The notes below the pieces were generated by a model. The model did not search any database, was not told the origin of the DNA, and saw nothing but the letters and a program-made list of their open reading frames with translations. DNA of 32,066 bases from Chiloscyllium plagiosum (Eukaryota), in contig NC_057758.1 in the NCBI RefSeq assembly GCF_004010195.1, positions 2,814,609 through 2,846,674 of the forward strand, given 5' to 3'. Positions within the stretch are counted from its first letter, which is position 1; every line of letters begins with the position of its first letter. Position numbers and translations under genes: made by a program. Positions 237 through 29,920 of the stretch are shown here, piece after piece.

Positions 237-1015
237 AACATGATTGAGACTTTCCAGGACAGAAACAGTAGAGAACTTTGGTGACACCATCGTTAATTTT
301 CTATTGTTTTACTTATACTTGTGATGGATCTGAAAGTGAAGTCAAAACTAAACTTTGATCATTAAATTGTGATAAATGCAGTAAAACTGGCAGAGATTTG
401 TTTTGTTAATGGTAGACCTGCTAGGCAATGGTAATTCATTACAAATCTGGGTAATGCTGCGGACGATGCAACATCGAGTTCTGTTATGCCCGGTGCTGAC
501 ACCTAGTTGCATGTTGAATTTCCTAATCAAGGGAAGGCAGACGCTTACCAGGCAACACAAAGAATAGTGATTAAAATAAAAAGAGGAATAGTGGTCTAAC
601 TTTGGCAGGACGGAAATGAGTTTTTTAATCATTGGGGCTTGATGATATGATTTACTCTCTCTCGTTGTCTGTCCAGTTCAACAATGGTTGAACGTTCTGT
701 CAAACATTTGATTTTCTATTCCTGATTGAAAAAAACGTATGAAAGAGTACATTTAACGGATAGCAACACGGTTACCTATGTTCACTACATTTCACACAGA
801 CAATTCACATGAACAGTAACGCCAGCAGAGGGGACAGTAAACCACAAGCGCATTCTTGTTGTAAAGCCTGCTTTCCAGCATCAATCCCTGACTGCAGAAA
901 CTTACCTGGGACGTCAACAATAGCTAGAATAAGCTAGTAAAAAGTTAAATAATCCGAATTGATCTATAGATCCACGATTCCAAATTCATTCATTTATGAT
1001 TCTGATAAATGTAAT
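237..1015. repeat. Paralogous block (intron + exon 1) duplicated at about 14928-16127
   Basis: Collinear matches: ACATGATTGAGACTTTCCAGG (238/14929), CTAATCAA.GGA.G.AGACGCT (~522/~15200), GTAAAGCCTGCTTTCCA (~860/~15973), ATAGATCCACGATTCCAAAT (~967/~16079). Confidence 0.85.
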
Positions 1016-1085
1016 TGAGCTCATAAGAGAGCGATTTTTCTAATGTTGGAATACTGGGAAGTGTTGATCCCAACTTCGAATCCAT
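906..1085 (-). pseudogene. Exon 1 of a GPR139-like orphan GPCR, decayed (copy A); exon 2 would lie left of the window
   Basis: Minus strand reads MDSKLGSTLPSIPTLEKSLSYELNYIYQNHK*MNLESWIYRSIRII*L[fs]Y*LILAIVDVP followed by a phase-1 donor G|GTAAGT at 906/905. Same position as the YYPFLAAIGIL G|gtaagt exon at 25768-26002, and paralogous to 16018-16127. Has in-frame stops and a frameshift. Confidence 0.72.
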
Positions 1086-1599
1086 TCATGTTACAATTTC
1101 TTATATTGCAATCAAGCTTCGCCCTCTGTAGTGAGCTGCAGGCTTCTGCCAGCTTAAAAGGTCACACAGCGCTCTGTCTTAGACTGTGAAAGGACACATT
1201 GGGAGGCAGGTGCTTATTACGAGAAGCAGGATACTGGGGATACAGTCAGACAACAGAATGCTGCTAATAACAATTACATCAGATGGAGCAGGTTCAGGTT
1301 TAAAACCCAGTGAGTTTTAACCAATAAAAATACTTCTGCCATAGCATCTGTAAAACTTTACAGTTTGCTGAAAATGTGGGACCAAAAGGTGAAAGCTTCA
1401 ATGACCTATGATCAGCTAGGGATTGACCAGGTGACTGCAGAATGGATGCTTTTGAGCAGATATTAGTAGCCCATCAACATTGAAGGGCGTTTTGCTGTTG
1501 AGAGGTCAACAATCATCATTTGTGATATTGTTGCACACATCACCTTCTAGGATATTGTCTGAGGTTGATGCATCAGCGCTGGTTAGAATGAATGTCCAG

Positions 1600-1920
1600 A
1601 GGATGATCTATCTCAGACTCCTGAGTTGCCAGTGATACAGTTTGTCTGTTTTCAGCCGATTCTGCTCACATCAGATGGTATCCATAAGCAGCTGAAGGCA
1701 TTGACAAGAAAAATTACCTTCCGTTCTCAGAGTATCCCCAAGCCACGATGCAAAACCTGTGCATGCATTGGACAATCAACACTTTCCATGCCCTACACAC
1801 CGACACTGGCAGGACGTGACAATCTAGGAAATAAATCACATGATGCCAGTTTAGAAAAAAAGCTTAGGAAACAATAAAGTTATCCAGTCAGTTCCCATCT
1901 CTCACTCGACCACCCTCCTT
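1600..1920 (+). mobile_element. Old CR1/L2-group LINE ORF2 fragment
   Basis: Degenerate FQPILLTSDGIHKQLKAL, resembling the pre-RT segment of a second LINE family; probably the family whose 3' ends occur at 26500-26865, 27610-27990 and 30700-30950. Confidence 0.5.
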
Positions 1921-2319
1921 CCCCAACAAAGAGACGGACAGTTCATTGACAGATGCATCGGTCCTCTGCAGACAGAAATAATTGATGCTGGTGTGATATC
2001 CAATAGGATCCATATCTGTCTGTAGCGCTGTTTGAAAGATGAACAGAATTGCACTGCAGAGGTGAAGTGAGAGGGAATGCTGTTGACAGAATCTCTGCGT
2101 ATGTCAGAGAGTGTCATCAGGCATTGTCAGTGAGTGGAAAATTGGCACAGACTCTTCACTTTCTTGAGGTTGAAAGAATATGTCATGGTTGTTGGAAACC
2201 AATCATCTCTCACCAATCCTCACATCTCCGGAAACGTGCAAGCAAAGAAGCCATGAGCAGGATTTGGCTATTCGAATCTGCGAGACTGTTGCAAGATTCA
2301 AAATGACCATCGCTGCTAA

Positions 2320-2820
2320 TCTAGCTGAATCCTTCCTTCCCACATGCGTCCCGAAACCGTTTGATCCCATTCTCCCAAAGTACAATATCTAACTGCTTTT
2401 TACAGACGTTCAAGGTTTTGGCCTCCCTCACTTTCTCTGACCGAGGATTCCATAGGTTGATCACTCTCTGCGTCAAAATATATCCTTTTTTCTCAGTTTT
2501 ATATAGCCAAACCCCATAACCTTAGACTTTGAGCACATTCTTCTCGATCTGGCGTTATTTGGAATAAACTACCTGTCCTCTGTTGAATCCTGTCAGAATT
2601 TTGAAAGATTCCATTGCATCACAGCTCATTCATATGAAGTCCAGTGAAACGAGTTCAAATGGATTCAGTCTCTCTTCATATGCTAATTGTTCCATCACTT
2701 GAATAAGTCCGATAAATCAGTTTGACATACATTGGCGCAGTCTCTCCATTGTCAGAACACCCTTCCTCAGGAATGAGAAGTGCACAAAGCGTTCCAGATG
2801 GGATCACAACAAGAGTATTA
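2320..2820 (-). mobile_element. Degraded CR1 LINE 3' fragment
   Basis: Reverse complement resembles the CR1 ORF2 C-terminus (TQRVINLWN-like motif at ~2445-2475). Confidence 0.6.
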
Positions 2821-2847
2821 TTAGCGGAATGTTTCAGAATCGGAAGA

Positions 2848-3195
2848 TCAATACCGAGGGAGTGTTGCAGTGTCACAAGGTCAGTGCAGAGAAAACGCCT
2901 CACTGTAGGAGGGTTCGTGCAGAGAGGGCACTGGACAATCGGAGTGTTAGTGTTGAGAGAATGGCCACTGTTGGCCAGCTGGTGTTGAGGGAACGCCACA
3001 GGATTAATGCTGATGGAGCACTCAGCTGATCAATACTGAGGGAGTGATGCACTTTTGGAGGGTCGATGCTGAGGAAGCACTGCACTGTCAAAGGGTGAGT
3101 GGTAAGGCAGAGCGCACTGCTGAGCACTCAGTGCTGAGGGAGAACCGAACTTTTCGATGGTCAGCTTTGAGTGAGTGAGCTAATATCGAAGAGAG
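2848..3195. repeat. Degenerate 33-bp minisatellite, about 10 copies, consensus TCAGTGCTGAGGGAGTGCTGCACTGTCGGAGGG
   Basis: Units start at 2848, 2881, 2914, 2947, then 3030, 3063, 3096, 3128, 3161; period about 33 nt with no unique spacers. Confidence 0.8.
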
Positions 3196-3369
3196 AGTCC
3201 CAATCAATTGAATGAGTTAAACATTGAAGTAAAAGATAGCGGACACACCTCCTCATGTGTGTTACATGTCATGTTTCTGATGTTTTTCCAATAGTCTATC
3301 TGCTCTTCCACAGTGAACTAAATTTATTATAAATGCTGTGCGGACAACGCCATCAGAGCACAACAGATT

Positions 3370-3530
3370 GTGGGTGAGGAGTGTCATTGGGTCAGGGAAT
3401 ACTTGATGAATGATGGGACACCAGGAATAAGTGGGCGTCAGAGGGAGTTTATATAACTATCGATAGATCCTCTAATGTAGCAGCACAGGTAGAAAAAGTG
3501 GGTCAGGCGATATATGGAGTACTGGCCTAC
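3370..3530 (+). mobile_element. Short degraded CR1 ORF2 fragment
   Basis: Encodes ...SSNVAAQVEKVGQAIYGVLA, matching the post-RT CR1 motif SLKVAXQVDKVVKKAYGMLA. Confidence 0.55.
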
Positions 3531-3559
3531 GATATACTTACGATACACCTGGATAAATT

Positions 3560-4150
3560 ACCCCATTTGACTCCAGTTCAAAACCATTTGCTCGTCACTT
3601 TGAAGTTATGCCATCGGGCCTCAGACACATTTGGTTGGGGAAGTAATTATTACAATCCACTCCATCTGTGCCTCTCATAGTTTTGTGTACCTTCATCAAA
3701 TTCCCCCCTCCCCAATCCTCCTCTGCTCCAAAGAGACAAATCGCAGTCTTTCTACTTAACTGAGACATTTCATCCAACGTAATATCCTTATGAATCCCTT
3801 CTGCATTGTTTGCAATGAAGTCAGTCCTTGTGCTAATATGGCGAGCAAAACTGCACAGTATTCCATTTGAGGACAAAATTGTGTTACAAAATTGTAGCGA
3901 AATTTATTTTCTCCAGACTTTACGAATGCCTAATGAAGGCAAGTATATTTTATGCCTTCTTCAACAAACCGTTACCTGTGCTGACACTTTCAAGGATCCT
4001 TGCACACCAAGATCCCGCAGTTCCTGCACACTTTTTGCAGATCTGCCACTCATTTTCTATGCCCTTTCCTGATGAACGTTCTCAAAATGAATCACCTCGC
4101 ACTTAACAGGCAGAAGTCTCACCAGCCATTGCTCTGGCAAATTTTGCATT
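3560..4150 (-). mobile_element. Degraded CR1 LINE ORF2 fragment
   Basis: Minus strand gives DLGV-SLKVSAQV near 3970-4015 and LFGAEE..GGNLMKVHKTMRG near 3675-3740. Confidence 0.6.
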
Positions 4151-4299
4151 TAAACAATACCAGCGTACACATAGACCATCCTCCTCATAATCAACTACAT
4201 GACCAAATTTCGAGAAGTATACAACCTTACTGATTATACATTTTATATTCTCATGCAAGTTGTGAACTTATCGTTCTGAGTCTCGGAATAGGTTGGTTT

Positions 4300-4605
4300 T
4301 GCATAGAAATAAGGAGGCGTCCATTTAACACTCAGATCAGGAGTTTCTTTTTTCTCTATCAGCAGTTTGTGAGCCATCAGAATTCCCTTCCTGAAAATGC
4401 AGTGGATTCAAAAGATTTTTTTTAAGTCAAATGTAATGAGATTTTTGATGACTGAGGGGATGAATGCTGATAGGGTGATATACATGAATGCAGAAATGAG
4501 GATAAAATTGAAACAACTATCATCTTATTGAGTGAGTGAGTGTGTGTGAGGGAGGGTTAGTAGTCTCCAGGGACTGAATGGACTCCTCTTGTTCCTTGTT
4601 CTTGT
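4300..4605 (+). mobile_element. Degraded CR1 3' end
   Basis: IRRRPFNTQIRSFFF-like C-terminus and 3' UTR GGGACTGAATGGACTCCTCTTGTTCCT. Confidence 0.55.
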
Positions 4606-5240
4606 GTTGAGGTTACTTCATAAAAATGCCTGGCAGCTTCTCGCACCGACATGTCCTATTTGTCCTTACGTGTGTTCCGCTCAATCAATTGTGCTTTGAC
4701 GTTGAAGGAGTGTACTGTAAGTCAGAAAGAGACTGAAAGCTGACAAGCACCTGTCATGTCGCAGAGTGTGCTGGAATATTTGAAGATGGAGCATTTTTGC
4801 TGGAACGTAGATACCTGACGCTTTTCACTGCAATACGAATTTAAACAAGCAGTTTACATTATACCCAAAGATACTAAAACCCAATCGAATTTGATTTTAC
4901 TGTTTTGACAACATGAAGTGAACGAGACGATCCGGTGTTTTGGGGATTAAAAGCAGGTATTTTGCACATTCAGCCAGATACAAAAAGTACCTTCTGCCAT
5001 CGGCAGACTGCTATTCAAAACTCTCTCAAAATTATACCTTGCTTTTTTTTTCAAATGAAAGCATCCGTGCAGCAGAAGATCAAGACGACCCAGGGAGATC
5101 TAAAAACGGAGGAGGATCGACACCGCTAACTGGTTTTGAAAATTGATTTGATATAAATTTAACAGGGACTCTATTGGCAGTTTATATAGTGGGAGGCAGA
5201 CAAACCTAAAAGAAAAATGAGGCTTAGAGTTATAAACTCT

Positions 5241-5944
5241 TCCACTGACACCCTCCTTCGACTGACTGAACTGGTCCTCACCCTGAACAACTTCTCTTTC
5301 CAATCCTCCCACTTCCTCCAAACGAAAGGAGTAGCCATGGGCACCCGCATGGGCCCCAGCTATGCCTGCCTCTTCGTAGGATATGTGGAACAATCCATCT
5401 TCCGCAACTACACTGGCACCACCCCACACCTTTTCCTCCACTACATCGTTGACTGTATCGGCGCCGCCTCATGCTCCCACGAGGAGGTTGAACAGCTCCC
5501 ATTCCACCAAGGATATGCAGGTCTTTGGATTCCTCCATCGTCAGACCACAGCGAAACGACGGTTGGATGAAGAACGCCTCATCTTCCGGCTAGGAACTCT
5601 CCAACCACAAGGGATGAACTCGGGTTTCACCAGTTTCCTCATTTCCCCTCCCCCCACCTTGTCTCAGTCAAATCCATCGAATTCAGCACCGCCTTCCTAA
5701 CCTGCAATCTTCTTCCCGACCTCTCCGCCCCCACCCCAGTCTGACCTATCACCCTCACTTTGACCTCTTTCCACCTATCACATTTCCGACGCCCCTCCCC
5801 CAAGTCCCTCCTCCCTACCTTTTATCTTAGCCTGCTGGACAAACTTTCCTCATTCCTGAAGAAGGGCTTATGCCCGAAACGTCGATTCTCCTGTTCCCTG
5901 GATGCTGCCTGACCTGCTGCGCTTTTCCAGCAACACATTTCCAG
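5241..5944 (+). mobile_element. Penelope-like element, 5'-truncated and internally deleted, flanked by a 13-bp direct repeat
   Basis: RT segment LTELVLTLNNFSF..QTKGVAMGTRMGPSYACLFVGY..HYIVDC joined at ~5495 to the endonuclease C-terminus EERLIFRLGTLQPQGMN; AGTTATAAACTCT at 5228-5240 and 5943-5955. Confidence 0.92.
5851..5887 (+). ncRNA. Minimal type I hammerhead ribozyme motif in the Penelope 3' terminus
   Basis: CTGAAGA (5856-5862) - A - stem II GGGC/TTAT/GCCC - GAAA - palindromic ACGT stem III - GTC cleavage triplet (5881-5883); stem I weak (ATTC/GATT). Confidence 0.7.
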
Positions 5945-6792
5945 TTATAAACTCTAGTTGTGTAATGTTGGTTTTAGAACTAAAGAATGAAATTGTTATT
6001 TTTTCTTTAATCAGTGGATTTTACGTAGTTCTCTGTCACTCTTACTTTATCAGATAACGAGAAGAGGTGAGCTTGCCTGTGTGCTTGACTTAATTAATAG
6101 ATGTGCTCACTGCCGTGTTTGAACAGTTCGGCTGCTCGGGTAGGTGATTTGGACAGGTTTAGTCAGACCAAGTCTGAAACCTGAACAGATTTTAAAAGAT
6201 TTGGATTGAAACATCCCTGCAGAGTTAACCATTAGCTGAATAGTGTGCTCGGTTTTTCAATAAAACATAGGTGAGACAATTCGTTTAATTTAGGTTACTT
6301 GTGGTAGCTTAAATTAGAAATGAGAGAAACAGCTCTTTAAATTGTTCAAGAGGTTCTGGGTTTGAACTCGATTCCCAAATTTATCCATAAAATGTAGAAC
6401 GAAAAGAAAAGATCATAGTTTTAGAGTTAGCAAAAAAAAGTTTAGCCTTGGGTTTAACCAATGACAAAAGTAAAAGTGAAATTGTAAGGGATTTCCTGTT
6501 TAGGTGTGTCAGAGAAACAGACAAGTGCAATAGAATTAGAAAAAAGAAATAAAAAACATTGAATAAAATGGTGTTGGAAGTTAACAGGATGGACATGAAG
6601 ACAGCAGGTAGTGGTGTATTATGTTAAATCACTGCCACATTTTGATGACAAAGATGTCAAAGCCTTCTTTATTTAACTTGAAAAATTGGCAAGGTAGAAG
6701 GAATAGTCAGAGGACCTTCGGTAATGCTATTCAGACTAAACTGTTGTCAGAGCGAGTGAATTGTTTCCAGCGCTCTCAGATGAGGGGTGAAG

Positions 6793-7873
6793 TCATAGAG
6801 TCATAGAGTCATAGAGATGGACAGCATGGAAACAGACCCTTTGGTCCAAACCGTCCATGCCGACCATATATCCCAACCCAATCTAGTCCCACCTGCCAGC
6901 ACCCGGCCCATATCCCTCCAAACCCTTCCTATTCATATACCCATCCAAATGCCTCTTAAATGTTGCAATTTTGCCAGCCTCCACCCCATCCTCTGGAAGT
7001 TCATTCCATACACGTACCATCCTCTGTGTGAAAAAGTTGCCCCTTAATTCTCTTTTATATCTTTCCCCTCTCACCCTAAACCTATGCCTCCAGTTCTGGA
7101 CTCCCCAACCTCAGGGAAAAGACTTTGTCTATTTATCCTATCCATGCCCCTCATAATTTTGTAAACCTCTATAAGATCACCCCTCAGCCTCCCATGCTCC
7201 AGGGAAAACAGCCCCAGCCTGTTTAGCCTCTCGCTGTAGCTCAGATCCTCTAACCCTGACAACATCCTTGTAAATCGTTTCTGAACCCTTTCAAGTTTCA
7301 CAACATTTTCCGATAGGAAGGAGACCCGAATTGCACGCAATATTCCAACAGTGGCCTAATCAATGCCCTGTACAGCCGCAACATGACCTCCTAACTCCTG
7401 TACTCAATACTCTGACCAATAAAAGAAAGCATATCAAACGCCTTCTTTACTATCCTATCGATCTGCGACTCCACTTTCAAGGAGCTACAAACCTGCACTC
7501 CCAGGTCTCTTTGTTCAGCAACACTCCCTAGGACCTTACCATTAAGTGTGTAGTGTATAGTTGTTCTGTTACCATTAAGTGTATAGTTCCCTGGCTTGTC
7601 TTCACCGTCGTTCTTAAGCAGTGGCACCACGTTTGCCAACCAGTCTTCCGGCACCTCACCTGTGACTATCAATGATACAAATATCTCAGCAAGAGGCCCA
7701 GAAATCACTTCTCTAGCTTCCCACAGAGTCCTCGGGTACACCTGATCAGGTCCAGGGGATTTATCCTTCAACCGTTTCAAGACATCCTCCTCTGTAATCT
7801 TGACATTTTGCAAAATGTCACCAGCTATTTCCCTACAATCTATATCTTCTATATCCTTTCCCACAATAAATAC
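6793..7873 (-). mobile_element. CR1 LINE inserted in Gypsy gag, 5'-truncated, RT core deleted
   Basis: (TCATAGAG)3 tail at 6793-6816; ORFs give LRGNFFTQRMVRVWNELP, LERVQKRFTRM, RLRGDLIEVYKIM and DKSPGPDQVYPRTLWEARE..VPEDW..KPGNY joined to YTLNGKVLGSVAEQRDLGVQV. Confidence 0.93.
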
Positions 7874-11923: not shown

Positions 11924-12817
11924 TCATTCAACATTTTTCGACTCATCTCCACATTGAACATATTTTACGATCAGAGTGAAGGGATATTTCAACCTATGTG
12001 TGAACTGATCTCGGAACATATTCTGTGTCAGAGCATATATAATAGTGTCTGTGCAACAACTCAAGAGCTGCAGCATGAGTCCCATTTCATGTACAGGGCC
12101 AGCTATCCAAAATGATACATCACCGACTAAATTCATTCGATTCCACAGATAATGGAGCATTGGCATTGTTCATCGTAATATAAAACCCTCAGAGAGTACA
12201 AATTGTCTCGTCTTGGAATTCCTTCGACTCTCCATTTCTGGATCTTTTGGACTTCTATCAGTTTTGTGGGCCCGGAGTGTTCTATGAGCACTGTTAGCTG
12301 TTAAACTGCACTTGACAGATAAAGTATTCAAGACAGATGGAACACATGTGGTCATATTGTAATGCAGAAAATCGATTTTTGTCCATGGCAATGTCAGGAC
12401 ACCTTTTGCGTAATACAACCAGTGAGCTTTCTGAAGAGTGTATGCGCTTTCACACATGAAATACCAGAAAATATTCTTGAAGCAGCTCAACGCAGTCACT
12501 GTACCCAGAACTACAGCTCTTGTTTTCTCGCTGCAATATTTACGTTTCAGCTCCTGGCAACAAATGGCCACAAATCGATCAAAGGTAAAAATGACGGTGA
12601 ACCAGACAGAACAGTCAGTGGCTGCATAAAGCAGGAAGACGTGGATATTACGCACGGGGGATGGAATATAGGAAATTAGCCTGTTCCTGATAACAATCGG
12701 AATGAGTCTCAATACCACATTGAGGACAATGATACTGCCATGGTCTCCAACTAACGACTGACAGAACTCGAGAGACTACAGTTCTGTGAACGAGAATGAT
12801 GATCAACGTCCTGTTGC
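11924..12817 (-). pseudogene. Exon 2 of a GPR139-like class A orphan GPCR pseudogene (copy B, TM1 to C-terminus)
   Basis: TM3 AATDCSVWFTVIFTFDRFVAICCQELKRKYCSEKT, ICL3 DPEMESRRNS, TM7 LQLLSCCTDTIIYALTQNMFRDQF..KYPF. Disabled by TAG near TM2, frameshifts at ~12725-12780, TGA at 12170-12172 in TM6, a shortened TM5 and a probable AG>AT acceptor mutation at 12818-12819. Confidence 0.9.
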
Positions 12818-12921
12818 ATGTGAGGTTGAGTGGTATGTGCTTAATCAAGGATCAGTTGAATATAAATATGACGATTGATCCTCTAATGCAATGAGCATGA
12901 TTTTTTCCACAGGTAGATGAA

Positions 12922-13179
12922 GGGAGGCACAGTGGATCAGTGGTAATCACTGCTGCCTCAAACACCAGCGATGCAGATTTTATTTCAGTCTCGGGCAAAA
13001 GTCTGTTTGGAGTTTGCAGGTGCTGACATGACTTTCCTCCAACAGATCAAAAATGTGCATGGTAGATGGATTGACTATGGGCAACTTAGGGTTACAGGGG
13101 TAGGGGTTGAGTTTGGTTGGGGTACTCTACGGATTCAATGGGCCTAATGACCTACATCCTCGTTATATGGATTCTACGA
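12922..13179 (+). mobile_element. tRNA-derived HE1/V-SINE-like element in the GPCR intron
   Basis: 5' GGGAGGCACAGTGGATCAGTGGTAATCACTGCTGCCTCA (A box), TGTTTGGAGTTTGCA core, and CR1-like tail ATGGGCCTAATGACCT..GGATTCTACGA. Confidence 0.8.
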
Positions 13180-13904
13180 AAATTTTGCTTCATACATTCT
13201 TCATTATCTGTCTATTAAATTATTCACAGAACAACAAATGAGAGTTATTCCTCTATATGCCATCTACAATGATTTATAAAAAAAATTCTCAGTATTCCAT
13301 CATTTTCACGCACTTTCCAGAAAATGACTATTCACTGAGTGTCCAGTTATTTGTCTCTGTTCGCGAAACATTTCTAAAAGCTATTAAATATTATGGTAAA
13401 CTAGAGCAAAGAAGACACCAAGTAATGAGACTATTATTCAAACAGAAGATAGGATAATTCCCAGGAGACCGTGGATTTCTGTGGTGAGATCAGTACAGAA
13501 GAATGATTATTCCCAGGCGACAGTGGTTAGTTTTCATGCAATTTCTATTGATTCCTACTCGTTATGTTTGCACTGTCAATAACGTTTGTCAAGTGCGTGT
13601 CTGTTCATATAGTATTCTGGTCTCTGCCATGAGATTTTGAACTTTGACGCCTTGTGGGGATCAGAAATTAATTCTCAATCATTGCTCAAATTTTGTTTTG
13701 GAAAGTAAGGTTGAGGGTCTGTGCCGTCCCTGGTTTGCTGTGATTCCGCTGAAATGTCAGGATTGAGCAGACGAATTTCAGAGAATCGTGGCGATTTGCA
13801 GTTGGCATAATGCAGTAATTTCTTGGTAAAACACAAGATGAGCACCTGTCAACGAAATTGAGATTTATTGTTCTGTTTGGGAAACGGAAAAGGGATCACA
13901 TTTA

Positions 13905-14135
13905 GAGTCGAAGAGTTACATATCACAGAAAAGACCCATCAGTCTATCTCGTCCATGCCAACTGGATATCTTAAACTACTCTCGTCCCATTTCCCAACAT
14001 TTCTTCCAACAATATCCATTAAACCCTCCTTATTCATGTACCCATACAGATGAATTGTAGATATTTTAATTCTAACAACCTCTACCGTATCATCTGGAAG
14101 ACCATTCCATACAGGCAGCACCTCTGTGGAAAAAA
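13905..14135 (-). mobile_element. CR1 3' end fragment
   Basis: ORF 13939-14121 VWNGLPDDTVEV..HLYGYMNKEGL..NVGKWD. Confidence 0.75.
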
Positions 14136-16017
14136 GCAGGAATCATCGATGCACTTATTTGTTTGACCAATAAAAGGAGAGTACAAATGTGAGATGATTA
14201 TTTTGTTACTCCATCAGTTACTTGATGAGCTGAATGGAAAAGATCAACACTGTCGTCTGATGTGATCCTATGAACAATAGCAAAGCTGTACATGACAGAA
14301 AAACAGAAAAAAGTGACTCAATGGATACAGACACAGAGACACTGAAAGAGAATGAGGGGGAGATGGAAGAAAAAATATTGATTTGAAAATTGCAGACGTA
14401 AAGAACGTTTCAAAAAGGGCAATATCCCGGTCAGGATTGGACTTTAAGAGTATTGAAGGATTAGCAAACAATGATAAGAATTTCAAATTCCAGACCTCGC
14501 CCGGATAGGACCCCATGGCCGTCGTGAACGCAGGAGACATAAAAGACTTGGTGTGAGTGATTGAATAACTTACCAGCTTCGGATGAGTTGCAGTTAATAA
14601 AAGCTTACATCTTTGGAATCTCGCTGGAAGACGATTAGACAAGCTGAGGGTGAATTTAAAAAATACACTGATGAGTTTGCATAGTGCAATGGATTCAGAA
14701 GAATTGCAGCTGGACACAACAATGGGGTGGTTGATGGCAGAGTTGACTCAGTTCACAGTCTAGACGTACGGGATTAATGTGATCATCTACAGTCCTGTTC
14801 AGAACGATGTTGGCAGTGGATATTGAGCAGGCTGCGTGCTAATGAATGAAAAGAGTAGCCTCGGTTTTCCAAGGATTTGAGTAAGAATTGGGGCATGCAA
14901 ACGAATAAATGTTTTCACTTCAATCGTCACATGATTGAGACTTTCCAGGGCAGAAAGAGCAGAGAATGTTGGAGAGACTCTCACTAATTTTCAACTATTT
15001 TCCCATTTTTATGGATCTACGTTCAAGGACTGAAATTAATTTTGAAGAACGAAATGTGGCAAAATTGGTTTGAACAGGCAGCGACTCGTTTTGTTGAGAA
15101 CTGACAAGGAAGGTGATGGTTATTCATTACAAACCTGGAGTATGCTGTGAATGAGTCTTGCTAGGCTCACTGTTAGTTGTTAGTACCATTTTGATTTTGC
15201 TAATCAAAGGAGGAGAGACGCTAAACAGCCAACACAATGAATATTGATTGAAATAAATAGAGAAAACGGGTTTTGACAGAAATGATATTTGGAATCTTTG
15301 AAACTGGCTCATAAGTTTCACACTCTCTACTTTTCTGCCCTGTTCAACAGATGCTGAATGTTATGGCAAAAGAAAAATGAAATTACTTTGTGAAGTCTCC
15401 TGAAACAGTTTGAAATCCAACTGGACTTAGTAATTAGAGCTTTGCGACTGTAAACAAGTATTTTTTTTAATAAAATGAAGCCTTGGAGTGCATCGCTTAA
15501 AGCGACCATCCAACATGAATTGCTTAGCTTTCTATTCAATTCTTCCCTTCAGTGTAGCTGTCTGTATGTGCGTGAGTAGAGATCACGATAAAAGAAATTT
15601 GAGATCAAAGCATAGTCATTAATTAGAGTTTATCTTTGTCCTGCCAAATTTAACGCATGACTAAAAACAATGAAGATTTTATTTAAGTCATCAAGTTACT
15701 GCTAAATATCCATTACTCTGAAACTCTGGTTAGTAACCGTTGGGAAAATTGGAATGTGATTTGATACTTTAAATTCAATGTTATACACATTCAGGTCAGA
15801 GTGATACTTTGGTTTGGTTTGCTATTCCTGTTTGAAAAAGAATGTCTGAGAGTAATTTTAAAGAATACTAAACACAGTTATCTGTGCTCACATTTCACAA
15901 TTTTTGTCAAATACTTCCCCAGGACAATAACCCCAGCTGGATGGAACAGGAAATAACGAACACATTCTTGAAGTAAAGCCTGCTTTCCATCATCAATCAC
16001 TGATTGGAGACACTTAC

Positions 16018-16127
16018 CAGACATGCCAAAAATAGTCAGACTGAGATCGTACAAATGCTCAAAAATCCGAATTGAACAATAGATCCACGATTCCAAATCT
16101 ATCTATTTATGATTATCATTAATGTAA
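16018..16127 (-). pseudogene. Exon 1 remnant of GPCR copy B, 5' part lost at a CR1 boundary
   Basis: YINDNHK*IDLESWIYCSIRIFEHLYDLSLTIFGMS then G|GTAAGT donor at 16018/16017 (phase 1); same strand as and ~3.2 kb upstream of exon 2; paralogous to 906-1015. Confidence 0.75.
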
Positions 16128-16925: not shown

Positions 16926-17226
16926 GTTTTTACTGAAATTAATCCTTCATTGTTAACATTACTCTGAATCGCAAACCAGCCACTCGGCCAACTGAGTTAC
17001 TCAGGCACAAGTGCGTACTGCACATGCTGGAGATTAGACACAAGATTGTGTTTTAGCAAGAAATGACCTGGAAAACATCAACTGCAAGTTACATGCATTT
17101 CTCTGAAGTATGTCTGCTCAGTCCTGACATTTCAGGGGAATGACAGCAAACCAGGAATATCACGTAGCCTCACCCTTACTTTCCAAAATAGAATTTGAAC
17201 AAGGATTGTGAATTAATTTGAGACAT

Positions 17227-17332
17227 GATTAGAGTGGCGATTCCTAATAAAGGGCTTTTTGCCCGAAACGTCGATTTTCCTGCTCCTCGCATGTTGCCTG
17301 AGGTGCTGTCCTTTTCCAGCACCACTTTAATT
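17227..17332 (+). mobile_element. Short Penelope terminus with a degenerate hammerhead motif
   Basis: ATTCCTAATAAAGGGCTTTTTGCCCGAAACGTCGATT.., homologous to 5852-5935; ends GATTAGAGTGG / CCACTTTAAT are inverted. Confidence 0.8.
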
Positions 17333-17651
17333 TCAACTGAGCCAGACAACCCCAATATTGACTCAACTGCACTTAAATGAAGATATATAATTTAAAACCC
17401 TTCGCAGATGGTGTTGTAAAGGTATCAGGCAAGTTTGAACCAAAGGAAAATAACTGATAAAATTAAATGCAGAGATCGTGGAAAGCCTTACCAGCTACAA
17501 GACTCCATTCCATTTCTCAGAGTTCAGCAGAAGTTGCGTTGTCCCGTCCGAAAGACTGTAAATGATCCAGTATCTCATTGCGTGCTGGCATTTTCAATGA
17601 ACAGGATGCACTCAATTGAGTGTCCAAATATCAGTCTCCCAGACAGTAGAC

Positions 17652-18411
17652 TGTTATGATACGGCGTTGAACAATTCTGTTAATTAAACCAATCGTCTCG
17701 TAATCTGTTAAATTATGAGTGACAAGGATCTTCCAGATTTAAATATTTAAAGAAATAATATCAATTTATTCTTTAAACTTAAAAGTGAACATTAAACAAC
17801 AACTACTTACAACTCTAAGCCTCCTTTCTCTCAACTGTTTATTATCTGCCTCCAACTCTTTCACAATATACTGTTCTAATACACAACCGTATTGAAATTA
17901 CATCAACTTAATTTCTCAACCACGGAGCAGCTGTCCTCGTCAGTGCCTGTTATCCATCGGCTTAGGTCTCCCTGCGTCGTCTTCGGTCTTCTACCAAAGA
18001 GACGTTTCATATGAATCATGTGCCTTTGTTGGAGAAAGTTTTGAATCGCAATCTCTCTCGAGTTGGCAATTACTCTCTCGATGGCAGTAGCTCTCTGTCT
18101 AACTTTCAAAAAATGCCTGTTTTTTCGACCCTAAACACCGGCTTGTTTCATTGGTTTGAGTTTGGCAAAAGCAATAAATTCAAACTCGATTGGGTTTTAG
18201 TATCCTGGGGCATCATTTAAAATGATTGGTTAAATTCGAATTGCTTCGAAAACAGCGACCAAAACTCAAGACTTTGTTTCACAACCAAATGTTACACATG
18301 TTCACTTTTCAGTACGCTCTGTGAAAGCTGGCCAGTCACGTGACAGTTGTCTGCCAGCTCGCAGTGCAAAACAGCTTTCTCTCTCTCTGAAACACCTTGG
18401 ACTTAATGACA
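17652..18411 (-). repeat. 3' LTR, 760 bp
   Basis: On the minus strand it begins TGTCAT directly after the PPT and ends ATAACA; homologous to the 4690-6125 LTR. Confidence 0.85.
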
Positions 18412-19340
18412 CCTTTCCCCTTCAGAAAAAGAAAATGGACTACCAAACTGAAAAGGTGGCTTCAATTTTTTTCGAATTCTTAACCTCCATTCCAAGGAAA
18501 TGCACAGCACATTAATCTAAGTTCACATCAATTCCTGCACCCACGCGCACATACACAGACAATTGTTATCCATTTAGTCTTAACTGTACTTTATCCATTA
18601 AATCCATGATAAAGCCTCCGCTATCACAGTCTTACATTCAGCAACATATGCAATTTATAAATTAAAAGTCAATAAAATTAGTCTTCAACGATATAGTCTC
18701 ATATTCTTGTCTTTAAATCATGTCAAGCATATAAGAGAATTGTGTTCACAATCTGTTCATAACTGTCTCTGACACATTGTTTGCCAAATAAACATTTCAA
18801 TATTGTCAGGCCAGTACCAGGCTCGTTAATTCATTTTCAATGGTAGAGTATTTTCTCTCGTGGGTGTTGACATTTTCTTTCGAAAATTAACCGACTGGCC
18901 GTTCAATTCCATGGTTGACCCCTTGATCATTTGCATCGATTGCAACTTTGAAGGGTTTCGAAAACTTTGGTGTAGCTCGAACTTGTGCAATGGTTCCTAC
19001 TGCTTTCAAATTGTCAAATGTCTTCTGGCATTGTTCTATCCAACAAAGTGGTGTGTTCTTCTTCAGTAAAACTGTAGCCATGCCAATATGCTGTTGAAGT
19101 TGGGAAGAAACTTCTGGTGGAATCCACTAATTCCCAAAAACGGAAGCGCTTCTTTCTTCGAGATTTCTTGTGGAAATTCCTCGATGGCCTTCATCATTGC
19201 GTCCCTTAGGTTCAATATTCCATGACCGATATTATATCCAAAGAAGATCACATCTGCCTTCGTGAATTCTGTTTACTTAAGTTTATTACCAGTTTTTCTT
19301 CTCTTCATCTTTCAACGAGCTCTGCCAACTGTGCCATGAC
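17652..19340 (-). mobile_element. Gypsy (Gmr1-like) 3' remnant: RT end, RNase H, PPT, 3' LTR
   Basis: Minus ORFs FFGYNIGHG..KAIEEFP..FLGISGFHQKFLPNF and WIEQCQKTFDNLK..FSKPFKVAIDAND; PPT GAAGGGGAAAGG (18412-18423) abuts the LTR. Confidence 0.88.
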
Positions 19341-19534
19341 TCACAGAGCTCACGATCTGATTCAAAAAGACTGCATATTTTGTTAACCCAGCTACAATAC
19401 TTTATATGTGTCTTTGGAATGTGGCTGGTGCGTTTTTCGTTCCAAAGCTAACCAATTCGCGAAACGTGTTTTCCCAACCTCATCATAATTGTTTAGCAGG
19501 CATAAGATGTCAAAACGAATCGCAAATATTATTT

Positions 19535-20095
19535 CAGCAAGTGCTACTCTAAAATTGGTTATGCCACCGTTAGACTCTTGTGTGCAATTCCATTCACCCA
19601 CTTATTCGAAGGATATTGTGAAACTTGAAAGGATTCAGGAACGATTTCCAACGGATTTAAGCTGTCGGGAAATGCTGAATAGTCTGGGACTGTAGTATCG
19701 GAGGCTGAGGGGTGACCTTATAGGAGTTAAGGAAATCATGAGGCGCATGGATTGTGTAAATACATGTGGCATATTCCCTTTGGCCGTAGAGTCTGGAACC
19801 AGAGAGCATAGGTTAAGGTTGAGAGGGAAAAATGTAGAAGGGACCAAAGGGACAAGCTTTAACACAGAGAATTGTGCATGTATGGAGTATATGCTGTGCT
19901 TTACCAGTAACACATTTTCAGCTCTGATCTCCAGCATCTGCAGACCTCACTTTCTCCGCAAGCATGGAGTAAGCTGGCAGAGTAAGTGGTGGAGGCTGGT
20001 AAACTTACAACATTTCACAGGTATCTGGGTGGATATATGAATAGGAACGGTTTAGAGGGTTATAGGCTAAGTGCTGGCAAAGAGAACCAGATACG
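19535..20095 (+). mobile_element. CR1 3' fragment containing a Penelope micro-insertion
   Basis: LVMPPLDSCVQFHSPTYSKDIVKLERIQERF, RLRGDLIGV, TREHRLRLRG. Confidence 0.85.
19890..19957 (+). mobile_element. 68-bp extreme 3' tip of a Penelope-like element with a 14-bp flanking duplication
   Basis: TGCTGTGCTTTACCAGTAACACATTTTCAG matches 5915-5944; flanks are GCATGTATGGAGTA (19876-19889) and GCAAGCATGGAGTA (19958-19971). Confidence 0.75.
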
Positions 20096-20119
20096 CTTCG
20101 ATTAAATTGCATTGAAGAT

Positions 20120-23100
20120 TAAAACTGGCAGGAGATGTCTGATCCGTGTTATGCTTCTCTTGCTCAGTACAGGAGCTCAGGAACACAATTGATATTCCAG
20201 ACTCCTTCACGTGCAGTGTTTCTGGCTGCAGTTCATGTTAGCCTGGATGACAGCTCGAGAGTTGTGGATTGAATTGCTTTGATCTGAATCTGAGATCGGG
20301 GATAGTACGTTTAGTAAATTGGTCACACCGCACATTAGGTTTAATGAGGGAGAAATGGAATGGGTGACAAACAGGTGGGGAAAGAGCAGGACGGCGCTGC
20401 AGGTGACTCCTATGATCATCTCTCTGGAAAACAGGTATTCTGTTTCGAATACTGCTAAGGGAGATGGCTCGCCAGGGAATAGCAACAGTAACTAGGTTCG
20501 TGGCATTGTAGATAGCTCTGCTGTGTAGAAGGGCGTAAAAATGAGTGCAAAGGCTATTGTTATGAAGGTTTAATTGGAAGGAGAGTAGATAGATTCGCTG
20601 TGGTTGAAAACGAGACGACAGAATGGGATGTTGCCTCACAGGTGCACGGGTCAGGTATGTCGCGGATTCTGAAGTGGGAGGGTGAATACCCAGTTGTCGT
20701 GGTGCACAAAACATATGGAAAAAGAAGGATGAGGTCTTCCTAACAGAATGTAGGGAATTTGGAGCCATGTAAAAGATAGGACGTTGGAGGCATTCATACA
20801 ACCTCAGGATTGCTACCAATGCAACGTGCTCGTCAGAGTTGAAATGAAAGCATAGGCAGGATGAAGGCGTGGCTTGGGAGGTGGTGCTGGAGGGAGGGGG
20901 ATCTGATTTTCGGGACTTTGGGACCGTTTCTGGGTGAGGTGGGACGATTAAAAATTGGATGGTCTGCACCTGGGCAGACACCTGCACCCGTTTGGGGTGC
21001 CTTTGCTAACGCTGTTGGGGAGGGTTTAAACTAACGTGGCAGAGATGTGAGAATCAAATGACAAGGTTAGTTGAACATAGCAAGGTAGCAACTAAAGCTT
21101 GTTAGGAACAGGATAATGAAGTCAATGTGTCTGAGGGGAAGAGTCGGCAGGGAGCAGATGATGAATGCAAAAGGACAGGTGGTCTGAGGTGCATTTTTGC
21201 TAAATGTGAGAAGTTCAGGAGGTGAGGCATGTGAACATAGGCCATGAATTAGCACGTGGGAGTATGATGTTATTGTTAGTACTGAGACTGGGCAGACAGA
21301 AGATTTGCAACCAAAAATTCCAGGATATAGATATTTCATTCGGTATAAAGAATGACGTAAAAGGGGTGGAGGAGTTGTATGACTGGTCAGAGAAGATATC
21401 ACAACTCTTCTGAAGGAAAGGACTATGGAGGACACGAGCAGTGAGACAATATGTGGAGAGCTCAGGAATAGGAAATAGGACGGTTTGGGTAAATGCTTTG
21501 GGGCTGGACTACAGGCCTCCCAACGGTGGCGTGAGATAAAGGTACGCATATATTGGCAGATTATGGAAACATGTTGCAGCAACAGGGTGGTGATAATAGA
21601 AGATTTTAATTTTCCCAACATTGAATTCGATTCACTTAGTGTTAGATGTCTTGTTGGAACAGAATGTCTAAGTAGCATGCACGAGGGTACATAAATAGAC
21701 CAGCAAGGCATTGAAAGCGTCACACTCAGGAAGGGGGCATTCTAGACATGTTGATGGGAATGAAATGAACAGGTGGTTGAAGTTTCAGTTGGGATTTACT
21801 TTGGGAATAGTGATCACAATTACATTAGTTTTAGAATACGCATGGGCAAAGACGAGAGTAGTCCTAAAGTAAGAGTGCTGAATCGGGGGAAGGACAATCA
21901 TACAAAAAATATCGCAGCAGCTGTGTAATGTGGTTTGGGGGCACTTATTTGAAAACAAATCCACATTTGATATGATTTGAAGATTGATTGACTGGTGGAC
22001 AGGACAGACATACCCTGTCAAAATGAAGGTTAGCTCTGGCAAAATCAGGAAACCAAATATTCCAGGCGAAATTGTGAGAACAGCTAAGAGGAATAAAGTA
22101 GCTTAAATAAGGTCTAGGCAGCTGAAAACAGACGAAGCTTTGGACGAATATTGGGAAGTTGAAGCAATCTGAAATGAGCAAGAAGATGGCGAAAAATGGT
22201 CATGAAATATCTCTGGTAAACACGGTTAAGGAAAATGTCAAAGCTTTTCATTCGTATATAAGGAGCAAGAGGGGAACTGGGGTGGCCCAGCCAATGACAA
22301 ATGAGAAAAGTTATGCGTAGATTAAGAGAAAATGGATGAGATTCTTAATTAGTGCATTGACTCAGTATTATTCGAGGAGAGGGATGTGACAGGTGAGGTT
22401 AGGGATAAATGTTGATACTCTAGTTCACGTTCGCCGAAGTGTTGGTCCGAAAGACATTAAGGCAGTCAAGTCCCCAAGTCTGGATGGGATGCATTTCAGG
22501 ATACTGATTCAAGTGAGATCGGAAATAGCTGGGGCCTTCACAAATGTATTTTCAGCATGACTGAACGCGAGTGAGGTCTTGGATTGCTGGAGAATTTCTA
22601 ATGTTGTCCCCTTGTTTAAGAAGGCACGATCCTGGTAATTATTGACTGGTGAGCCTGTTGTCAATGGTAGCGAAGGTGCTGGAGAAGATACTGAAGAACG
22701 GGATTCATTTATATTTGTTAGAAAATGTTCTCATTAATGATCAGCAACATACTTTTGACCAGGGAAAAGTCATGTCTTTCCAAATTGAAAGGAAGTCATT
22801 GAGGAGGCACCTGACTGAGAACTACAAATTCAGGAGAGGCAGAGATAAGGTGGATAGCAAGAAGTGTTTTCCGATCACGGGGTCTCCACTATTAGGGATC
22901 ACGAGTTCAAGATGACGGCGTAGTTTATACGGGATATAAATGAAAGATTCTGTCTGCAGAGGGTGGTGGGTGCATGGAATGCGTTGCCAACGGAGGAGGT
23001 AGTGACGGACACGAAAACGTCATTTACGTTGCATCTGCACAGATATATGAAAGGACTGAGAGCAGAGCAATACAGATCCTTTGAAAATAGGCAACAGGTT

Positions 23101-23175
23101 AAGATAAAGGATCTGAATCAGCGCATGCATGGAGGGCTGAAGGGCCTATTATCGTGTTGTAATTTGTTCTTTGAT
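20120..23175 (+). mobile_element. Near-full-length degraded CR1 (ORF1 esterase-like, ORF2 endonuclease, RT core deleted)
   Basis: ORF1 RDDRMGCCLTGARVRYVAD (~20611) and LDGLHL (~20956); endonuclease VVIIEDFNFPNI (~21590) and NSDHN (~21806); WRISNVVPLFKK (~22590); jump at ~22780 from QQHTFDQGKVMS to the C-terminal LRRHLTENYK..VVGAWNALP; then the 3' UTR. Confidence 0.88.
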
Positions 23176-23249
23176 ATTTGGTCAAAGTGGACGACTTGGA
23201 CCAAAGTGTCTGTTTCTGTGCTCCAGATCTCTATTATTCTATGACAATA

Positions 23250-24035
23250 AAATTCTGAGGAGTAGAGTGATTTACGTCTTCAGGTGCATGACTCCCAAGT
23301 AGTTCTTCTTAAAAACAGAAGATAGTGAAGGAGACAAGTATGGTGTTGGCCTTTATGATAAGATAGAGTGAACTTAGATGTGATCTTTCCGTTATACAGG
23401 GTTCTGTTGCAGAGGGTGCAGGAGTTTTCTCATCTGGAGCATGGTGTGCGGTTCTGGGCTCCTTATTGAAAGCTAGATGCAAATTTGTTGAAACTTATGA
23501 AGAAGAAGGATTCATGGGTTGATTCCCTGGAATGACGAGATAAGGTTGCACTGATTGGTCTTGCTCCAACTGGAGTTATAAGAAGTGAGGGGGATTGGGG
23601 GAAGGATGTGACCCAATTGATAATTGCAAGATACTTAACCGTCTGGTCAAAGCAGACATGGGGAGACAGGTCTACTGTTGTTGGTCAGTCTGGAATGAGA
23701 GGTAAACGGATTTGCAATGGGGGAGGATCGGGGTAGGATGCCGACCTTACAATTCGGAGATGAACATTCTCTCTTTCTCTCTCTGTGGAAACGTTTGTGT
23801 GACAGTGGAACTCTGTGCACTCCGAAGGTGGTCGAGGTTGCCCATGGAAGATTTTAGAAGATGGAGGTGAACAGATTATTTTGACAGAGAAATGGAAAGG
23901 TATTGGAGGTGGATATGGCAGCGTGAAATTCCAAAGACAGCAGAATCAGCCATGATCATTTTGAAGATGGAGCAGGCTCGAGGGAGCCGATGGCCTTTTG
24001 GTCTGCTCCTGCCTGATATCTCCTGTATTTGTGAC
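23250..24035 (+). mobile_element. Degraded CR1 3' part (older subfamily)
   Basis: HLEHGVRFWAPY motif (~23431) and 3' UTR GGCTCGAGGGAGCCGATGGCCTT..CTGCTCCT. Confidence 0.7.
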
Positions 24036-25384
24036 TGAATGAAATCTTCATTGAACACATTCCATGGCTCTGCTTGCATATAATTTCATTGACGCTATGT
24101 CCAGTTTTCACAGAGAAATGCTTTCTCACTTCGTTCATCTTGAGCCTCTCTTGGGTATTCACAGCTTGCACTGTACTATCCCAAATCGAACATTATCGTA
24201 AAATGTGTCTCAGTTCCCCATAATTACCCCTGTCCTAAAACATGGTCACAATCTCTTCTCTTTGTGGGACATCCACGACTCTCTCTCTCTCTCTCTTCCC
24301 CGCAAGCATGCAGCTTTTACCTTAATCAATTGTCTTGTCTCTCCTGAATATTTTGTAACCAGGAAAATGACACACCCAGTAATGCTCTAAGTGAATCCCC
24401 AACTTTGGAGGTCCAGCAGCATTATTTTTGTTTTCTACTGTGGACAGGTGGAATGAAAATTTGCCACTGTATCTCGCCAGCACTGTTTACCATTTACATG
24501 GAATTCACGTGCAGGGACATTATGTTTACTTTCCATGTCATTGCCTCTCTTACACCTAACTATGAGTGGTCAATACCTTTCAGTTTCCTGAGTTGGTTAC
24601 CTCCTGAGTGGAGTTACCCCACTTCTGAAATCATTCGGTGCGTCCTGTTGTTTCTCTTCCAATTTTCACTCTGGGTCAACGCTGCAGACCAGTTGGTAAA
24701 AACCTGCCCAGATCACATCATCCGCACTGCAGCTTGTCGAAGATTATCCACTGGAAAGTGCTCAGGTAGCATCAATCTCATCATTGGTGATATTGTCCCT
24801 TTCTCTAAAGCACTCCATTTTGCTGTGGACTTCTCGCCACATTCTTTTGGTTACTTTACTATTCTTCCTTCAACTGTGAGATTAATCAATTCTGTCTGTT
24901 ACTTTCTGAAAGATACGTAACAGGTTTATCATTATCAAACCATGGCAGATCTGTCTCAGACCAGAGGACATCAGTTAAAGGTGAATGAGCAAGAGGTTTT
25001 GCGGAGGTCTGAGAAGTACTTTTCACCCGGAAATGTGTAACATGCAAGTGAAGACGGTGGTGGTTGCAGTTACTCTCACTAAATTTGAACACAGTAACTG
25101 GATTTGACATATTTGGCCTTAGTGAGCTCTGACTCCATATATTGGGCAAATTGGAAGAAAATGTTTGTATTACAGTAATACGGTCCTGTGCCTCCCTGCA
25201 CACTCTTTCTGATATTGCGCTGAGAGGCCTGCACTACCATAGTTTATGTCTGCCATTATCTTATTAAGAGGTACACTTTTTGCATAACCGTCTCTCAGTC
25301 AAATCAAGCAAAAAGACTCATAAATGTAAAATTGAAAGATTTTGATGTTTGTGTGTTTATCTTTTGTCCTGAAGTCCTGTTGTC

Positions 25385-25672
25385 TGGATATCTCAATGAG
25401 AAAGTTCATGTTTTGTGAATTTCTGAGGCCAAGGTGTGTTGCTCTGAAAGACGTCAGTAGAAATAATTTGTTCAGAGACGACAAATGATGTCGGGCTCCA
25501 GGGACTATCGTTGTATCAGTGGAGATTTTCTCTTTTTAATGAAAAAGTTTTTTCTTGTGATTTCCTGAGTGCAAGGCATGTTACAATGAGAGACGGCAGC
25601 AGCAATTATTTGTTCAGAGACGACAAATGATGTCAGTCTCCAGGGATCCTGGAGATCAGTGGAGATTTCCAC
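25385..25672. repeat. ~142-bp tandem duplication immediately upstream of GPCR copy C
   Basis: ATTTGTTCAGAGACGACAAATGATGTC at 25466 and 25608; ATCAGTGGAGATTT at ~25514 and ~25655. Confidence 0.88.
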
Positions 25673-25767
25673 TTTTCGCTTCATAAGGACAACACTCCAA
25701 AGTATCATCTTATGGTATCAGAGGGAGCCCTTAGCTGTGGCTTTCACAGCTACCGACCTCAGTAAGA

Positions 25768-26002
25768 ATGACGGAGAGGAGTGATCGAAATCTGAGAAGG
25801 GCACACTGGAATATTACAACAATGGAACCGAACCTGGCGACAGCAGACTGGAATTTCACAAATATGGATAGAATATTGCCTTCACAAATAGCCTATTACA
25901 TTAGAAATCAGCACTTGATGACAGTCTACTATCGAATACGGTATATTCTTCTGCTGTTTCAGCATGTTTACTATCCATTCCTTGCTGCTATTGGTATCTT
26001 AG
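25768..26002 (+). CDS. Exon 1 of a GPR139-like orphan GPCR (copy C): N-terminus to mid-TM1; exon 2 not seen in the window
   Basis: Open frame MTERSDRNLRRAHWNITTMEPNLATADWNFTNMDRI..FQHVYYPFLAAIGIL then G|GTAAGT (phase 1, 26002/26003); N-glycosylation sequons NIT and NFT. The true start ATG is uncertain. Confidence 0.78.
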
Positions 26003-26865: not shown

Positions 26866-26924
26866 GAATAATGCATGGATGGAAGATTGGAATTTGACAT
26901 TGTAATGATTCAAACAAAGTATCG

Positions 26925-27990: not shown

Positions 27991-28004
27991 TGAACTCCTA
28001 GACT

Positions 28005-29918: not shown

Positions 29919-29920
29919 TA

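Follow-up and report, generated by a model that had tools for sequence, protein, structure and literature searches.

What kind of receptor family left its broken gene copies in this 32,066-nucleotide stretch of Chiloscyllium plagiosum DNA (the window), and what does such a family do? The first-pass annotation had read the stretch as holding three paralogous first exons with phase-1 GTAAGT donors, two belonging to dead copies and one open and divergently oriented. The coordinates, an N-terminal profile and DNA alignments agree on the three exons, and the stops and frameshifts of copies A and B, together with the open frame of copy C, bear out the rest. All three exons end in G before GTAAGT, in phase 1 and in the middle of TM1. 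With 14 GTAAGT hexamers in the window, the donor by itself says little. A profile of the N-termini of 94 family members detects copy C (E 8e-21) and copy A (1e-4), copy B alone not being significant (E 5.4). Copies A and B are 74% identical in DNA over 320 nt and 66% identical over a further 469 nt of intron, and the alignment scores of 50 (A-C) and 49 (B-C) exceed shuffled maxima of 31 and 34, respectively.

Copy A is a pseudogene on the minus strand at the left edge of the window. Its first exon (906..1085), encoding the N-terminus and the first half of TM1, runs from an ATG at 1085 to a phase-1 donor at 905 and has acquired two stops and one frameshift (TGA at 990-992 and TAG at 934-936, with one nucleotide lost near 946). 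The adjoining intron (238..905, minus strand) is homologous to segments 14929-15370 and 15813-16017 of the copy B intron and is broken at 236 by the 3' end of a young LINE; exon 2 is expected past the left edge. Copy B, likewise on the minus strand, retains a remnant of exon 1 (16018..16127) with the phase-1 donor and a TAG at 16103-16105. The 5' part of this exon is gone: the match to copy A ends at about 16127, the start codon was not identified, and the missing part was found nowhere else in the window. An intron of about 3.2 kb (12811..16017) with an eroded acceptor leads to exon 2 (11924..12810), which encodes the protein from the latter half of TM1 through the C-terminus, carries four frameshifts and two stops, of which one falls on the W6.48 codon, and is 53% identical (150/283) to its best relative. 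The second exon placed earlier at 11924-12817 is thus present, but it starts near 12810, the nearest acceptor AG being 12812-12811, and this acceptor end is eroded.

At one shared site of exon 1, where Trp is the commonest residue (21 of 53), copy A has TGA and copy B has TAG; different stop codons at the same site fit separate deaths of the two copies. The duplication that produced A and B is old, their DNA identity being 71-74%. The rapid turnover originally proposed holds only partially, although sequencing runs of DNA from this species do contain relatives 90-97% identical to copy C. Both dead copies sit amid LINE fragments, and a search of Rfam gave no match in the window. No 26-bp satellite was seen upstream of the copies: TRF lists none, and the lag-26 match near A, B and C is 0.39-0.40, lower than the window maximum of 0.47.

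Copy C lies head-to-head with copy B on the plus strand. Its exon 1 (25768..26002) is open over 78 codons to a phase-1 donor at 26003, and by its reading frame the copy is possibly alive. The N-terminus contains two units of 42 nt (14 residues; 25783..25866, plus strand), each with a W-N-x-T glycosylation sequon; akin units occur in 36 of the 73 family N-termini examined. Directly upstream is a diverged 142-bp tandem duplication (25395..25676, plus strand; 79% identity). No exon 2 was found in 26003-32066, where neither a tblastn search using 120 relatives nor DNA alignment scored above chance; the intron may simply be longer than the searched span, since that of copy B is 3.2 kb and the DNA downstream of copy C contains repeats. 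One RNA run yielded three reads from a close paralog of copy C, none of them more than 95% alike. A second run yielded none for copy C, and neither run contained splice joints. RNA support for copy C itself was thus nil in these runs, and no RNA dataset is listed as carrying its exon.

The family to which these copies belong is large. Exon 2 of copy B matched 1,055 protein clusters (290 of 336 candidates and 765 of 1,132), and among the 240 matches listed, the 230 that are named all come from sharks or rays, in 18 species. Counting genes less than 95% identical as distinct, there are at least 71 in Heterodontus and at least 46 in Heptranchias, most of these counts being of automatic gene models. 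Six to 12 distinct genes occur at each of seven scaffold lengths, seven on a 2.4-Mb scaffold, and the window itself holds three copies within 32 kb. Each of the 19 deep representatives looked up is chondrichthyan, one of them from Callorhinchus. The tree contains lineage-restricted clades: in one, supported at 98, eight of nine rows are named Heterodontus, and in another, supported at 92, 11 of 13 rows are named batoids. A metagenome scan for family DNA gave 173 pattern matches, none of which was confirmed. Judged from the gene models, the expansion is real and clustered, and it extends to chimaeras. The claim of a class A GPCR family with two-exon genes, clustered, expanded in one lineage and undergoing birth and death therefore stands, on the Heterodontus genes, the shared scaffolds, the dead copies A and B and the lineage clades.

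Gene number of this kind could be mostly neutral, the outcome of repeat-driven segmental duplication of a few receptors, with most copies redundant or decaying. Two of the three copies in the window are dead, amid LINE fragments, and the donor at the position of copy C is broken in one DNA contig, as such a process would leave them. We nevertheless consider this explanation improbable: in 18 species there are still intact models with conserved signaling motifs and both cysteines, sharks and rays have deep subfamilies in common, with one chimaera member, and variation is concentrated outside the cell.

The class of the receptor is clear from its intact members, which score 54-107 bits against Pfam 7tm_1 (cut-off 30.5), while the broken window piece alone falls below the cut-off. 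A structural model of one family member has a full 7TM fold with seven long helices (pLDDT 87.9). Among 236 sequences, R3.50 is kept in 234, W6.48 in 236, N7.49 in 232 and Y7.53 in 234, and T takes the place of P7.50 in 231. Two cysteines, one atop TM3 and the other in ECL2, are kept in 236 and 234 of the 236, and a TM3-ECL2 disulfide is likely. The window peptide from broken copy B does match Pfam Srx (E 6.5e-7), but of four intact shark members three have no Srx match and the fourth is below the cut-off, and we reject that label. Pfam Srw matched none of the shark members scanned. The automatic names capa, CysLT1, GPR15 and vasopressin receptor-like were also rejected, because proteins so named fall inside the same clade.

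Human GPR139 (PDB 7VUG) is the best solved-structure match both by sequence and by fold, and the first-pass annotation had by implication tied the family to GPR139 and GPR142 as amino-acid sensors. Some features would suit true co-orthologs that sense L-Trp and L-Phe and were amplified in sharks. The shark receptors and GPR139 are both class A 7TM receptors with a non-canonical NPxxY region that keep F/Y3.33, H5.43 and W6.48, and GPR139, like the shark family genes, has two exons (PMC7318219). In the subfamily of copy B (n=236) the hydrophobic pocket residues of GPR139 agree, F109 being Y or F in 224, H187 being H in 224 and W241 being W in all 236, but these positions are far more varied in 60 deep representatives. 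The polar pocket, with positions mapped via HMMER alignments, is replaced: in 236 sequences E108 is never E, R244 is R in at most two and N271 is N in three. Identity to human GPR139 is 24% by structural alignment, whereas human and zebrafish GPR139 are 70% identical (PMC7318219). Human GPR139 also aligns a Pro at the first of the two cysteine positions, and it is one conserved gene rather than many clustered copies. The family profile gives human GPR139 50.7 bits, below proteins of leech (95.5), amphioxus (98.1), a teleost (138.6), coelacanth (153.5) and salamander (164.8). We regard co-orthology as very improbable and no longer hold the proposed tie. As far as sequence comparison reaches, the shark family appears to be an unnamed class A lineage in the GPR139/GPR142/FMRFamide-receptor group, separate from GPR139, which would be merely its nearest human label. 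The trees contain no GPR139 or GPR142 sequences, and profile scores stand in for placement.

The nearest bony-vertebrate relative is an amphibian and sturgeon gene annotated as probable GPR139 (e.g. XP_069092602.1), which groups with the shark family in a single clade (SH-aLRT 94) and shares its ICL3 end motif and both cysteines. Unlike the shark family, it is represented by one cluster per species listed; its amphibian sequences are 66-74% identical to one another and 29% identical to shark members, and their pocket is invariant in 22 of 22. The next closest relatives form a sister lineage, also named probable GPR139, in coelacanth, a teleost and amphioxus (XP_005988539.1, KAM4562537.1 and CAH1273669.1), which differs from the shark family in keeping R6.51. 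Against human GPR139 the coelacanth protein scores 70.4 bits and a shark member 52.6.

We consider it probable that the family is an expanded, functional and ligand-diversified repertoire that is not GPR139. The window would be part of a tandem cluster in a lineage that cartilaginous fishes grew into a large repertoire. Its two-exon genes duplicate locally, introns included, and some copies die, as A and B did. Each intact copy would signal through G proteins and prefer ligands of its own, the whole set serving as a repertoire. Paralogs keep the side facing the G protein (ICL1, the DRF motif, ICL2, the end of ICL3 and TM7) as well as the two cysteines, and vary in ECL1, ECL2, outer TM6 and ECL3. 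Measured at the protein level, column identity outside and inside the cell is 0.54 and 0.79 in Heterodontus and 0.46 and 0.82 in Heptranchias, compared with 0.71 and 0.67 in 22 amphibian ortholog sequences. Retained intracellular loops beneath a variable exterior resemble sensor repertoires. Variable outer loops are, however, common among GPCR paralogs, and the variation may reflect relaxed constraint. The deep pocket is almost uniform in the subfamily of copy B (L3.32, Y/F3.33, D3.37, H5.43 and W6.48), which could mean one shared ligand, and deeper subfamilies also differ in the pocket.

What such a repertoire reads is less settled. Within this explanation, the likeliest role, with a chance only a little short of even, is the sensing of external chemical cues in sensory or barrier epithelia; the cues would probably be peptides or other molecules larger than a free amino acid. 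Clusters, turnover and a variable outer surface also fit leukocyte or epithelial receptors for peptides of microbes or inflammatory signals of the host, for which formyl-peptide receptors and MRGPRs are the comparison, and the differing numbers of glycosylated N-terminal repeats would suit them too. According to the whale shark paper (PMC8455134), cartilaginous fishes are without MAS1 and its relatives, so that role would be open for the shark family. Yet the nearest relatives are of neuropeptide type and not chemokine or formyl-peptide receptors, and we think an immune or barrier repertoire unlikely. A part in reproduction, through sperm or genital tract signaling or mate cues as with the protostome sex-peptide/MIP receptor, has a slim chance. 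Fast-evolving families are often expressed in testis. The wider clade does contain MIP/sex-peptide receptors (PMC8514136, PMC12208981), but the link to them is distant.

A narrower version of the preferred repertoire is tentative and rather doubtful: a further chemosensory family of about 100 or more genes per genome in sharks, rays and chimaeras, active in olfactory cells or sensory cells of another kind. Such a family would make up for the tiny sets of OR, TAAR and V1R genes and be a counterpart to the expansions of Srw type in invertebrates, bony vertebrates having kept one conserved copy or lost the lineage. Weighing against a sensory role in general, the catshark study has no GPCR among its 50 most specific brain-and-olfactory genes (PMC11979771). 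Cartilaginous fishes have been described as GPCR-poor (PMC8455134), a picture that sits badly with a single shark having 71 or more distinct genes under the one automatic name GPR139. Literature searches, covering the matches listed in largely non-subscription literature, found no paper on the shark family, and GPR139 is absent from 12 of the 24 whale shark supplement files and from part of file 19. RefSeq already contains these genes as automatic models, so the novelty lies in recognizing and placing the family. The family supplies definite candidates to look for in existing shark RNA data, and the conserved single gene of frogs and salamanders, Xenopus among them, opens a way to seek the ancestral ligand in the laboratory.

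Among known systems, the OR, TAAR, V1R/ORA and V2R families are likewise clustered birth-and-death GPCR repertoires, from which the shark family is an unrelated lineage by the searches made. Although they smell keenly, cartilaginous fishes are described as carrying only small numbers of OR, TAAR and V1R genes; the catshark numbers are OR 8, TAAR 3+2, V1R/ORA 3 and V2R about 35 (PMC11979771), below the shark-family lower bounds in Heterodontus and Heptranchias, which are different species. Closer in kind are the Srw/FMRFamide-receptor-like expansions of nematodes, gastropods and planarians, which belong to the same broad receptor group and are also lineage-specific; atlas look-alikes of the shark family include Srw-bearing invertebrate clusters, and in molluscs and nematodes receptors of this type have a putative chemosensory role (PMC11682238). 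The shark expansion is independent of these, the shark members scanned differ from them in having no Srw match, and the invertebrate roles are themselves mostly putative.

Three first exons of a two-exon class A GPCR gene lie in the window, each ending midway through the first transmembrane helix (TM1) at a phase-1 G|GTAAGT donor: those of copy A (1085-906) and copy B (about 16127-16018) on the minus strand and that of copy C (25768-26002) on the plus strand. The second exon of copy B (about 12810-11924, minus strand) is present as a broken coding sequence. The first-pass annotation took the three first exons to be paralogous, and this is confirmed by DNA similarity, which ties all three together, and for A and C by a profile of 94 family N-termini, which matched copy C at E 8e-21 and copy A at E 1e-4; copy B exon 1 alone gave no significant match to this profile. 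Copies A and B lie in tandem, separated by about 15 kb; they share 74% identity over 320 nt, and a further 469 nt of their introns align at 66%. Local DNA alignment scores were 50 for A-C and 49 for B-C, against shuffled maxima of 31 and 34.

Two of the copies had been regarded as dead and one first exon as open and divergent, and both views hold. In copy A exon 1 there are two stops, TGA (990-992) and TAG (934-936), and one base has been lost near 946. Copy B exon 1 has lost its 5' part and contains a TAG at 16103-16105, and its exon 2, 53% identical to the best relative, has four frameshifts and two stops. At one shared codon position A and B carry different stops; Trp is the commonest residue there (21 of 53 family N-termini), and TGG becomes TGA or TAG by one change each. 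The simplest reading of different stops at the same codon, each one change from TGG, is that A and B were inactivated separately after duplication. The first exon of copy C, which faces away from B, is open for 78 codons and holds two 14-residue units with glycosylation sequons. Because no exon 2 was found within 6,064 nt downstream, using tblastn with relatives and DNA alignment in the window, copy C is a candidate gene only. At window position 26003, one contig of a DNA run (depth 28.3) reads C where the donor should have G and has a gap of 21 nt close by; it represents a non-functional version of copy C, either a paralogue or an allele.

The copies are set among repeats. Within 30955-32066, a plus-strand LINE with a reverse-transcriptase ORF (Pfam RVT_1) adjoins the 3' end of a minus-strand LINE, which is tailed by (TAGAACA)n, and the pair looks like a 5'-inverted insertion. 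A second copy of this 3' end, 92% identical and with the same 7-bp tail, lies in the copy A intron (3-236) and is a recent insertion into an inactivated gene. The degenerate 33-bp array at 2845-3165, about 1.8 kb upstream of copy A, is presumably a common shark repeat. Downstream of copy C an unclassified element some 860 bp long occurs twice (26925-27785 and 29921-30948), its copies being 73-77% identical. A diverged 1.3-kb repeat pair (20922-22277 and 28017-29344) is 67% identical, and two ORFs from its region had no Pfam match.

With the copy B exon 2 peptide as query, 290 of 336 and 765 of 1,132 candidate protein clusters (clustered at 90% identity) were matches, with 38-58% identity among the matches listed. 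Among those listed (240 of 1,055), 230 were named and every one was from a shark or ray, spanning 18 species. Counted from the matches listed, and so as lower bounds, Heterodontus has at least 78 family members, at least 71 of them distinct (below 95%), and Heptranchias at least 55, at least 46 of them distinct. Seven recurring scaffold lengths each account for 6-12 distinct genes; a 2.4-Mb scaffold has 7. A HMMER search gave 129 clusters (50% identity) at E up to 1e-30, and among the 30 of 150 listed clusters examined for taxon, all 19 high-scoring ones were chondrichthyan, including one Callorhinchus. The lineage-expanded receptor family proposed initially is borne out by the Heterodontus count and the uniformly shark and ray matches, and a chondrichthyan expansion is well supported. 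In Chiloscyllium plagiosum DNA-type runs, contigs 90-97% like the copy C exon reach depths of 131-232, and an exact 5' piece of that exon occurs at depth 12 in the same DNA run; this suggests recent near-copies of copy C, read depth not being copy number. A normal first half of TM1 is missing from 38 of 147 gene models examined among the listed matches; the prediction of exon 1 therefore often goes wrong, and tallies of intact genes taken from databases should be treated with caution. In one Chiloscyllium punctatum model a family receptor is joined to a segment with a coiled coil and a RING-type annotation; the model is likely a fusion of neighbouring genes, hinting at TRIM-like genes beside a receptor cluster.

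In a 50-row tree, with long branches flagged at the root and without GPR139 and GPR142 among its rows, the shark family and an amphibian/sturgeon gene form one clade (SH-aLRT 94), copy B sits within a shark-and-ray subfamily (support 99), and a coelacanth, teleost and amphioxus group falls outside that clade. Since amphibian and sturgeon members join the shark clade, the lineage predates the divergence of bony from cartilaginous fishes, the expansion seen here being chondrichthyan. The best 25 of 1,675 candidates in a salamander protein search comprised 20 amphibian clusters, each headed by a different species, together with four clusters from sharks or rays and one from a sturgeon; amniote or teleost relatives were not among these 25, which is weak evidence of absence. 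The amphibian/sturgeon and coelacanth/teleost groups are two further conserved vertebrate orphan receptors auto-named 'probable GPR139' and distinct from it; either may be a gene that still lacks a name of its own.

Of 236 listed full-length members, all 236 retain a cysteine at the TM3 top and 234 retain one in ECL2. Conservation inside versus outside the cell is 0.79 versus 0.54 among Heterodontus paralogues and 0.82 versus 0.46 in Heptranchias, compared with 0.67 versus 0.71 among amphibian orthologues. A conserved inside and variable outside is the signature of common signalling combined with diverse ligands, and does not prove positive selection; within the copy B subfamily the deep pocket is near-uniform. 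A chemosensory role for the family has a little under an even chance (putative chemoreceptors of Srw type are treated in PMC11682238). An immune or barrier role is possible at perhaps half that likelihood, that the copies are largely neutral is improbable, and a reproductive role is slightly more doubtful still. Evidence of expression is thin: in one single-cell RNA run, 3 of 12,955,460 records (about 2% of the run) are 90-95% like copy C and share differences with paralogous DNA contigs, and another run of that sample had 0 such records.

Literature searches, covering among others parts of PMC8455134, PMC11979771, PMC7318219, bioRxiv 10.64898/2026.08.31.747588 and bioRxiv 10.1101/2022.11.27.518102, showed no publication on this family among the papers listed; subscription papers and further supplements could describe it. 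According to PMC8455134, GPCRs are scarce in cartilaginous fishes, and a term search of bioRxiv 10.1101/2025.02.19.638963 gave no mention of GPCRs.

The proposed tie to the amino-acid sensors GPR139 and GPR142, which are grouped with MIP, proctolin and FMRFamide receptors (PMC12208981, PMC8514136), is not supported. Among solved structures, human GPR139 ranks first on sequence as well as on fold, but with 24% identity and a very narrow lead over other peptide receptors; true GPR139 orthologues of human and zebrafish are 70% identical (PMC7318219). The 50.7 bits that GPR139 scored against the family profile were exceeded by proteins from leech (95.5), amphioxus (98.1), a teleost (138.6), coelacanth (153.5) and salamander (164.8). 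The 'GPR139' label is misleading for the shark family. GPR139 contacts L-Trp and L-Phe through F109, H187 and W241 and the polar E108, R244 and N271 (PMC7318219). Sixty deep family representatives vary widely at all these positions save W241. Free aromatic amino acid binding in the GPR139 manner is unlikely because the polar trio is replaced, and a GPR139-like amino-acid role for the family is very improbable. Among 236 listed full-length members, the hydrophobic positions F109, H187 and W241 are kept as in GPR139 in 224, 224 and 236, whereas E108, R244 and N271 are kept in 0, at most 2 and 3.
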